Below, piece by piece: positions 30,464 through 30,965 of a stretch of 64,000 bases of DNA; position 1 is the stretch's first letter, and each line of letters opens with the position of its first letter. Position numbers and translations under genes: made by a program. The notes under the pieces were generated by a model. The model did not search any database, was not told where the DNA came from, and saw only the letters and a program-made list of their open reading frames with translations. Source of the DNA: Mobula hypostoma (lineage: Eukaryota); assembly GCF_963921235.1 (NCBI RefSeq), contig NC_086107.1:112160001-112224000 (forward strand). The letters run 5' to 3'.

Positions 30464-30965
30464 CAGTCAGTCAGTCAGTCAGTCGGTGCCGTCCCGAATC
30501 TGGGGTGGGCGGCTATGCACCTCCATCTTCCTCGATCTTGCGACAGCACTAAGTACAGCCTCTCCTCCAGTTTGTTCTCGCTGGCCGCCTTGGCACTGCC
30601 CGCCACCGCCCCTGCCGAACTCAAGCCCGAGGCTATGTCGGCTTCCAGCTGCAGCCGCTTCTTCAAGCTTGGCCCTTCCTTAGGCGGAGGCCTTGGGCAG
30701 GTCCAGGCACACGGTGCAGCGCCCAAGTTCATCATGTCTCTTCTAAGTCCTTAGCATACGATTCGTAGATACGTGGTGAGGCTTTAATCTCTTCCACGGA
30801 AGATGGCCGTTGGCTCACAAGGAGCTCATCCGCCCTTTGTCAGGTCTTGTTGTTTTTAGTCCTGCTGGGTGTCCTCCCACCCTCCTCACCAAACTCAGTC
30901 CGGTGGGGGAGCCGGCCCAAGTTGCCGACCACTCGACCACGGCCCCTGGCCGAGCGCCGGTATCC
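30464..30965 (-). mobile_element. Non-autonomous RTE-like retroelement hosting the ZFTRAF1 fragment
   Basis: 3' end encodes DMMNLAQDRGRWRCIAAHP (RTE-type A.DR..WR tail) once the insert is removed. (ACTG)n tail at 30464-30484 and a GC-rich 5' part. Confidence 0.6.
30543..30720 (-). pseudogene. ZFTRAF1: Circularly permuted fragment of ZFTRAF1/CYHR1 N-terminal coding sequence
   Basis: The minus strand reads (C)[10 protein letters not shown] (30720-30679), then [12 protein letters not shown]…[12 protein letters not shown] (30678-30543). The native order, as recalled, is KKRL…[25 protein letters not shown]. Confidence 0.8.

Follow-up and report, generated by a model that had tools for sequence, protein, structure and literature searches.

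The locus and its ZFTRAF1 segment

The 64,000-nucleotide stretch of the Mobula hypostoma genome analysed here (NCBI RefSeq assembly GCF_963921235.1, contig NC_086107.1, positions 112,160,001 to 112,224,000 of the forward strand), which is referred to as the window, carries on its minus strand a retrotransposon copy that has at its centre a piece of the host gene ZFTRAF1, also named CYHR1. This piece, 178 nt long at positions 30720-30543, is a circular permutation of one contiguous stretch (178-180 nt) of exon 1 of the native gene, with the downstream part of that stretch (segment A) placed ahead of the upstream part (segment B), and both of its flanks derive from a long interspersed nuclear element (LINE) of RTE-like type (Table 1). 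The copy is very probably a 5'-truncated daughter of a non-autonomous family of ~1,000 members, the master of which was formed once in this lineage from an RTE-like LINE that lost its coding interior and gained, at the deletion joint, exactly one turn of a ZFTRAF1 exon 1 circle of 178-180 nt or of a template equivalent to such a circle.

Table 1. Features of the retrotransposon copy, in window positions; L053 is the locus of native ZFTRAF1 exon 1, L102 and L104 are LINE copies, UTR is untranslated region and ORF is open reading frame.
Feature	Position	Strand	Evidence
5'-truncated copy of non-autonomous RTE-derived family	30464..30960	-	29 other loci alignable; longest copies ~83 nt longer at 5' end
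Part from 5'UTR of RTE-like LINE	30721..30960	-	81-86% identity of five family copies to L102 and L104
Segment A: 3' part of ZFTRAF1 exon 1 (12 codons), native L053 1513..1474	30681..30720	-	39/40 identity
Ambiguous bases AG	30680-30679	-	assignable to segment A or segment B
Segment B: upstream part of ZFTRAF1 exon 1, native L053 1651..1514, directly before A in the gene	30543..30680	-	window copy 123/138, consensus 136/138
Last codons of RTE-like ORF (..QDRRRWRCIAAHPRFGTAP..), in frame with segment B	30485..30542	-	shared with LINE loci
(GACT)5 terminal microsatellite of RTE-like element	30465..30484	-	read directly; same tail on LINE copies

The base composition sets the segment apart, with a GC content of 0.64-0.66 between 30543 and 30720 against 0.28-0.5 in the neighbouring sequence. 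On rereading, its minus-strand sequence and translations were as given in an earlier first-pass annotation of the window, segment A encoding 11 residues before a stop and segment B, in another frame, 45 residues. A protein search with the window's own 45-residue translation of segment B against longer proteins returned 74 candidates, none at E <= 0.01, the decayed copy being too short and too diverged for this route. The Pfam zf-TRAF domain was also tried as a way to the native gene, and as none of its 10 matches was like the zinc-finger region of ZFTRAF1 it was dropped in favour of a junction pattern. This consisted of a motif from the end of segment B, 12 free bases and a motif from the start of segment A, allowing up to 2 mismatches on both strands and with the reversed pattern as control, and was run, as were all the genome searches below, on the window's own genome of 3.48 Gb. 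Exactly one match was found, and none to the control. It lies at G000:C5:228091033-228091067(-), has 0 mismatches and reads ...GAGAGGCTGTACTCGGTGCTGT/GCTGCACCGTGTG, the slash here and below marking a boundary, and the native junction of B to A (GTGCTGT/GCTGCACC) is thus unique in the genome.

The matching locus, L053, opens with an ATG, continues for 109 codons and is followed by gtacag. Its translation matched 76 proteins at E <= 0.001, the best of which are named zinc finger TRAF-type-containing protein 1 or cysteine and histidine-rich protein 1. Matches with these names come from Pristis, Leucoraja, Amblyraja, Scyliorhinus and Callorhinchus (E 1e-39 to 5e-22), the best elasmobranch ones having E 1e-39 to 2e-34 and 72-78% identity, and a stretch of 22 residues is invariant in all nine aligned sequences. 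The source gene proposed in the first-pass annotation is therefore the right one. A full-length ZFTRAF1 orthologue maps to four exons on one contig and strand across ~158 kb, with L053 as exon 1, and this four-exon structure identifies L053 as the real gene and not a retrocopy.

It could be that the swapped order was already present in the source, in that a colinear copy taken across the joint of a tandemly duplicated ZFTRAF1 exon 1, or of a duplicated retrocopy, would hold A directly before B. The first-pass annotation had recognised that a native reordering or tandem duplication would explain the segment, and there is none. Each half occurs once in the native exon, in the normal order, and the genome has one native junction, by which rearrangement or duplication of the native gene is excluded for this assembly. 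There is also no other ZFTRAF1-like locus, since the 102 scored matches of a protein-to-genome search with ZFTRAF1 consist of the 4 exons and 98 copies of the retrotransposon family, the latter covering residues ~43-113 only. Furthermore, a random section of a dimer would not have the length of exactly one unit, and a rearrangement on the side of the source is thus very improbable.

When the window copy is compared with L053 by BLAST, its two segments fall on the native exon in swapped order (Table 1). The consensus of the family, which is described below, shows the same with less decay, as consensus positions 243-282 correspond to L053 1513-1474 (39/40) and positions 283-420 to L053 1651-1514 (136/138), with 175 of the 178 aligned bases identical and 3 that differ. 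The outer ends of the permuted piece are native bases 1514 and 1513, which are adjacent, leaving a gap of 0 and an overlap of 0 as had been claimed, and the bases outside both outer joints are unlike ZFTRAF1 and match the LINE. As the neighbouring bases differ from the gene and the two native ends abut, the permutation is exact and comprises one unit. At the end of segment B the consensus reads CTG TAC TCG GTG CTG T (LYSVL), the LYLVL of the window copy being the result of CpG decay.

A further feature of native exon 1 is a strong-looking 3' splice site (pyrimidine tract, ctaac, cgcag/g) at L053 1690-1650 on the minus strand, within the coding part of this first exon. It is placed 24 nt upstream of the start of segment B and might mark an alternative splice form of ZFTRAF1. 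Among the sequencing runs on record, 18 entries contain the native exon, none of them listed as RNA.

A retrotransposon family and its partner LINE

The members of the family have the layout RTE 5'UTR, ZFTRAF1 segment A, ZFTRAF1 segment B, last 75 nt of the RTE ORF and (GACT)n, with an element length of ~500-580 bp. When the genome was searched at the DNA level with the 178-base permuted segment there were 920 first-look candidates, and the counts for the family across searches ranged from 920 to 1,234. The query is covered over its full length by all 40 scored matches, of which the 39 that are not the window copy are 91-93% identical to it, and 29 of 29 other loci that were fetched align to the window from 30960/30735 to 30478/30462 at 84-92% identity. 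All family copies end in (GACT)n and their 5' ends are variable. An alignment of 54 copies gave a consensus of 496 nt with a mean divergence of 5.1%, or 2.8% outside CpG, to which the window copy, the sole family copy in the window, is 94.2% identical.

The inner junction was also followed through the genome with a motif made of the end of segment A, 3-10 free bases and the start of segment B, which had 258 exact matches and none in the control. The spacer is 6 nt in each of the 100 matches listed, with CCTAAG in 85 of them and TCTAAG, which has the native T, in 4. At a divergence of 5% about a third of the copies would keep the 19 specified bases intact, which suggests that the family has some 800-1,000 copies, a figure that agrees with the 920-1,234 candidates. 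Fetching through the 5' part gave 20 loci, in 17 of which the element is whole; in 2 the insert has internal deletions, and in 1 it breaks off after 7 nt. A pattern for an empty site (end of the 5'UTR part, 0-12 nt, start of the tail) had no match in the genome, and more than one turn, with B followed by A, was found in none of the family copies with the native-junction pattern across the genome.

The three joints are identical in all the copies examined, and it follows that the chimera was formed once and then spread, by a single capture in a master element and later amplification. The first-pass annotation had instead proposed that a circle of RNA or DNA was integrated at this site in the window, into a resident RTE-like element. 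The local sequence does resemble an insert with RTE-like flanks, but the same 178 bp with the same flanks are found genome-wide in the numbers given above, no copy free of the insert was found, all 20 loci fetched through the 5' part carry at least the start of it, and the window copy is diverged from the consensus and 5'-truncated like any other daughter. A local integration is therefore extremely improbable, and this part of the proposal has to be given up.

The time of the capture can be placed in relation to other cartilaginous fishes. The family consensus agrees at all but one residue with the poorly conserved Ala/Gly/Ser linker of this genome's own ZFTRAF1, from which the orthologues of Pristis, Leucoraja, Amblyraja and Scyliorhinus differ, and this match together with the 175/178 identity indicates capture in this lineage.

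Two further observations concern the copies themselves. In an alignment of the 5' ends of 44 copies the long copies fall into two classes, one starting near ..ATGGTTTTCGG and the other, ~28 nt longer, starting near ..GGTTTGGTCGCCGGCC, a pattern suggestive of two favoured sites for starting or stopping. Within 37 kb, three family copies (L004, L005 and L006; G000:C52, 2.78-2.82 Mb) have 1.0-1.4 kb of flank in common, and these common flanks show that they were multiplied by segmental duplication and not by retrotransposition.

The LINE that supplied the flanks was reached through the tail module. Among 20 loci fetched with its 75 nt there were 10 full or nearly full family copies, 5 that were 5'-truncated family copies and 5 with the module only. 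In these last five the homology begins at the exact base where segment B ends and runs at 94-96% identity over the 75 nt and (GACT)n. In four of them (L076, L078, L085 and L089) the sequence upstream of the module is the end of a long ORF, ...GKRERGRQRTTWYDNVRQWTG.SY.EARKRAQDR.RWRCIAANP.FGTAPTD and a stop, whilst the fifth, L074, has just 13 further bases in common. The stop codon of the LINE ORF lies inside the (GACT)n tail, in the window copy as a TGA at 30477-30475 within (GACT)5. Longer LINE copies encode a reverse transcriptase (Pfam RVT_1, E 7e-29); as to an endonuclease domain, an upstream piece of 153 aa had no Pfam match. The 3' end of the LINE has 10,935 candidates in the genome against 89 for a probe 2 kb upstream, which means that the LINE population is heavily 5'-truncated, and eight copies picked for long open frames are all 5'-truncated at <=2 kb; none of the LINE copies recovered is full-length. 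Eight LINE copies match the family tail at 80-96%. We take the LINE to be RTE-like from its architecture and from the C-terminal ..AQDR..WR motif. In excerpts of PMC2887409 RTE elements are described as having a single ORF for an AP-endonuclease and a reverse transcriptase, an extremely short 3'UTR of simple repeats and many 3' partial copies, and in its ORF, its short repeat 3'UTR and its 3' partial copies the partner LINE appears to match that description.

The other end of the family is found in the same LINE. The similarity of the 5' part of five family copies to L102 and L104 (Table 1) extends over 110-218 nt, at the 5' limit of the mutual homology of the LINE copies, and runs to ...ATGAACTTGGGC, after which the LINE continues with CCCTTG and the family with GCTGCACC. 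A possible start of the LINE coding sequence, judged by eye, is ~90 nt beyond this 5' joint, with the 5' part of the family upstream of the LINE coding region. The RTE-like nature of the flanks, which had been noted in the first-pass annotation, is thus upheld at both ends, the last 75 nt and (GACT)n being the end of a LINE that encodes a reverse transcriptase and the 5' part resembling the 5' region of that LINE.

The family has no coding capacity of its own for an endonuclease or a reverse transcriptase, its sole long open frame being 122 codons. With ARAGORN no tRNA gene was found in the window stretch or in any of 8 loci that have long copies, and at the gathering score there was no Rfam match in the window stretch, where two small nucleolar RNA matches of 16-18 bits are below the threshold, and none in 3 long copies. 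The family is thus without the RNA polymerase III head from tRNA, 5S, 7SL or small nuclear RNA that is the mark of a classical short interspersed nuclear element. As in the SIDEs discussed below, its 3' end, including the terminal repeat, and its 5' region come from the same LINE, and with both ends derived from the LINE and neither a tRNA nor an Rfam head the family is an internally deleted LINE derivative.

The inner join and the route of capture

To obtain a swap with outer ends that abut, one join (the end of A to the start of B) and one cut (between the end of B and the start of A) are needed, and there are three routes that give both. The cut is exact to the base, and it is the inner join that has to be read with some care. 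The native exon ends ...GCC TCC GTC TAC CAG/gtacag and around the start of segment B reads ...gagctggag/GAA GGG CCG, the family reading GCC TCC GCC TAA GGA AGG GCC. In an ungapped alignment the inner junction is at 30680/30681, and the first-pass annotation, which gave 30678/30679, is right only if the ambiguous AG is assigned to the other half.

This ambiguity leads to two readings of the join. In the first, the exon 1 donor is joined to a cryptic acceptor (CAG/GAA) to give a 180-nt circle of 60 codons, with GT after the end of A, AG before the start of B and AGG repeated at both ends, and this needs 2 nt (CC) to have been lost later and a T next to the join to have become C. In the second, which is the ungapped one, A ends at ...GTCTA, 4 nt short of the exon end (CCAG/gtacag), B starts at AGGAAGGG, and the circle is of 178 nt with a blunt join, no splice signals, no indel and no direct repeats. 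The bases that tell native gene and family apart are in the gene the T in GACTCGG, the G in AACAAGCTG, the T in CCGTCTA and the CC, and in the family A, A, C and no CC. A GT and an AG do stand at the right positions in the native sequence (...GTCTACCAG/gtacag and ...ctggag/GAAGGG), but the family sequence, GCCTAAGGAAGGG, is shorter by 2 nt and has one change, and an intact join of the two is absent from all 258 motif matches. The internal junction is not placed cleanly at the exon end, as it is 4 nt upstream of the donor when aligned without gaps and reaches the donor only if the loss of CC is assumed. The inner join is 0-4 nt from the exon 1 donor and may be a back-splice.

The best reading of these joints is that a circular intermediate served as a template while the RTE was being reverse transcribed. 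In a target-primed reaction the RTE reverse transcriptase would have copied the last 75 nt of the RTE RNA, moved from there to a small, closed circle of RNA derived from ZFTRAF1 exon 1, gone round it for one full turn until it met its own entry point or its own complementary DNA (cDNA), and switched back to the RTE RNA within the 5'UTR. The product would have had both RTE ends and could have been amplified in trans by autonomous RTEs. In favour of a route through RNA, the ZFTRAF1 fragment and the RTE ORF run in the same sense, and the interior deletion and the insertion share two joints, as is expected of one run of template switches; in favour of an RNA circle, the inner join adjoins the donor. 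For non-LTR (non-long terminal repeat) elements, jumps between templates in vivo are on record in excerpts of PMC3414825, as are non-autonomous derivatives with internal deletions.

The different parts of this reading are not equally secure. The template was probably covalently circular, and it is likewise probable that it was RNA. That it was a putative back-spliced circular RNA (circRNA) is a tentative proposal. In its complete form, with a back-splice within ZFTRAF1 exon 1 from the donor to a cryptic AG 180 nt upstream, exactly one turn copied by the RTE reverse transcriptase, a stop at its own cDNA and a single event that founded the family, the proposal is somewhat unlikely. What is left over after this and the two routes below falls to other circular RNA or to unknown routes.

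A number of points weigh against the capture of an RNA circle. An intact donor-to-acceptor join is kept in 0 of the 258 motif matches; a longer inner spacer occurs in 1 match only, where it is a 12-nt duplication. The ungapped join is 4 nt before the exon end, with GT or AG on neither side, and 24 nt upstream of the start of B there is a cryptic acceptor that looks better (...ccctctaacccgtcgcag/g) and was left unused. A first exon has no natural upstream acceptor. A reverse transcriptase on a circle could be expected to run for more or for less than one turn, and the exon 1 circle itself is postulated from the genome sequence. As to the 5' side, two LINE copies, of three further loci, reach the 5' region, and there the first ~100 nt of the longest family copies are unmatched. 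All three joints are blunt, with no microhomology and no extra bases, which fits DNA end-joining as well as jumping by a reverse transcriptase, and a GC-rich, exonic segment of ~180 bp at the 5' end of a gene also fits microDNA as described in parts of PMC8040306.

The last two points lead to the second route, in which the circle was one of DNA. A microDNA, or small extrachromosomal circular DNA (eccDNA), of ~180 bp from the GC-rich first exon of ZFTRAF1 would have been cut once and end-joined as filler at a break that deleted the interior of an RTE copy, this genomic copy becoming the master. A single cut of such a circle yields exactly one unit with a gap and overlap of 0, which is what is seen, the inner join is freed from any need of splice sites, as the ungapped alignment has it, the three joints are blunt, and the size, the GC of 0.64-0.66 and the position in an exon at the 5' end of a gene all match the microDNA descriptions in the parts of PMC8040306 drawn on. 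It requires, however, that a germline break in an RTE copy, a deletion of ~3 kb and the capture of a filler all occurred together, and it leaves the sense orientation of the insert with respect to the RTE to a chance of 1 in 2. There is also no intron base in the segment although the cut point is 44 nt from the intron, and a random genomic circle of 178 nt that includes this point would be confined to the exon in about 1 case in 4, while an end <=4 nt from the donor would arise by chance in about 5 cases in 178. A DNA circle is an unlikely source.

The third route dispenses with a covalent circle. A ZFTRAF1 transcript cleaved once between ...GTGCTGT and GCTGCACC would offer the RTE reverse transcriptase two linear fragments for serial template jumps, in which it would go onto the new 3' end of the upstream fragment (B), switch internally to the downstream fragment near the exon end, run off at the new 5' end (A) and return to the RTE RNA. 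One RNA cleavage explains the abutting outer ends, and RNA ends are natural points to jump on and to run off; the fragment is in the sense orientation, and the inner join has no need of splice signals. Both template jumping by non-LTR reverse transcriptases and chimeric retrocopies of several parts are documented, with PMC3414825, PMC2104539 and PMC8857657, all three as excerpts, as the sources. Against this, two switches are needed from one internal position to another (from the start of B to the end of A, and from the start of A to the RTE 5'UTR), both without microhomology, and both cleavage fragments are needed in one run of reverse transcription, so that more independent coincidences are called for than with a circle. 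It is an unlikely route.

Read-through of an intron lariat was also considered as a source of a circular template and was rejected, as the start of B (GAAGGG) lacks the GT of a 5' splice site and the end of A is unlike the branch-point consensus.

Related systems, consequences and neighbouring repeats

The family combines features of kinds already known, namely circRNA-derived pseudogenes, internally deleted LINE derivatives and template-jump chimeras, and what is unusual about it is that its joints are clean and its copy number is high. Of circRNA-derived pseudogenes there are 33 copies for mouse circRFWD2, with sequence of long terminal repeat (LTR) retrotransposons enriched in their flanks (Dong et al. 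2016, Cell Res; PMC4897178), which suggests that those copies may have hitch-hiked in a retroelement. Retrocopies of circRNA amount to a handful of mammalian cases, with a mechanism that is described as unknown (PMC4897178). The present family is like them in that sequence of the parent gene is non-colinear, in reversed order, without a poly(A) tail and in multiple copies. It differs in that its 178-180 nt are from within a single first exon and do not span an exon-exon back-splice junction, in that the join is 0-4 nt off the donor and the outer ends show exactly one turn, and in that the sequence is carried, in a cartilaginous fish, by a non-LTR derivative of RTE type whose copy number is ~30-fold higher. 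The parent circRNA, moreover, is here a putative one.

With the SIDEs (Eickbush & Eickbush 2012; PMC3414825, in excerpt) the family shares that it is non-autonomous, that it has the 5' and 3' ends of a LINE and that it is mobilised by an autonomous partner, and the same excerpts also report jumps of the reverse transcriptase to cellular RNAs. The SIDEs are R2 or R2/R1 elements in the ribosomal DNA of Drosophila and are rare (PMC3414825, in excerpt), whereas here the source is an RTE-like LINE, there are ~1,000 dispersed copies and a host exon fragment stands at the deletion joint. In chimeric retrocopies made by LINE template jumps, such as the tripartite one of Magnaporthe (PMC2104539, in excerpt), modules derived from RNA are likewise fused in sense with the LINE 3' part last, but in the chimeras known so far the modules are colinear with their sources, whereas here the two host modules are one source rotated and the chimera became a mobile family. 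MicroDNAs, according to parts of PMC8040306, are circles of ~200-400 bp from exon, 5'UTR or CpG-island DNA, and the permuted segment is like these and other small eccDNAs in its size class and in its origin in an exon, at a gene 5' end and in GC-rich DNA, a likeness that agrees with a microDNA source but is not diagnostic of one. They differ in being described as extrachromosomal, and re-integration in the germline into a transposon followed by amplification is not mentioned in those parts of PMC8040306, no literature search having been aimed at that point.

The value of the family is that ~1,000 copies preserve one capture event, each of the three joints of which can be read at single-base resolution. 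These joints record the action of an enzyme or of repair, with entry 75 nt from the 3' end of the LINE, exactly one turn, blunt joints and re-entry in the 5'UTR, and show how a non-autonomous retrotransposon can arise in one step from a LINE and a host fragment. The family also provides a dated, lineage-specific marker for the genomics of cartilaginous fishes. Should the template have been a circRNA, the family would document, in nature, a LINE enzyme that read a circRNA as well as a circRNA that gave rise to ~1,000 genomic insertions. On the practical side, family transcripts contain a ZFTRAF1 junction that resembles a back-splice and will give false circRNA calls in Mobula hypostoma, and gene predictors may pick up the frame of 122 codons.

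This frame runs from stop to stop over consensus positions ~130-496, in the window 30831-30475 on the minus strand, and ends at the LINE stop inside (GACT)n. It is made up of part of the RTE 5'UTR, segment A out of frame, segment B in the ZFTRAF1 frame (KKRPR) and the last 22 RTE codons, and with segment B in frame with these codons the element carries a small ORF that ends at the LINE stop. The KKRPR of segment B is a putative motif of the nuclear-localisation type. By a rough count by eye the 122-aa frame is open in ~45 of the 98 family matches of the ZFTRAF1 protein-to-genome search, a share that on a back-of-envelope estimate was judged to be about what neutral decay would leave at the age of the family. 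The captured piece may have helped the family to spread, as the small ORF could put a translating ribosome at the place where nascent RTE protein picks its template.

Other repeats are found close to family copies. A segment of ~87 bp just upstream of one copy (L009:2056-2142, minus strand) was first considered as a part of the family and was rejected as such, being a different and abundant repeat with 3,066 first-look candidates; it often has an inverted partial copy nearby, which gives it the look of a miniature inverted-repeat transposable element. In the window two other short interspersed repeats, at 31284-31388 and 29847-29989, flank the element, and both recur at 77-91% identity beside the unrelated family loci L002, L008, L022, L024, L025 and L030.

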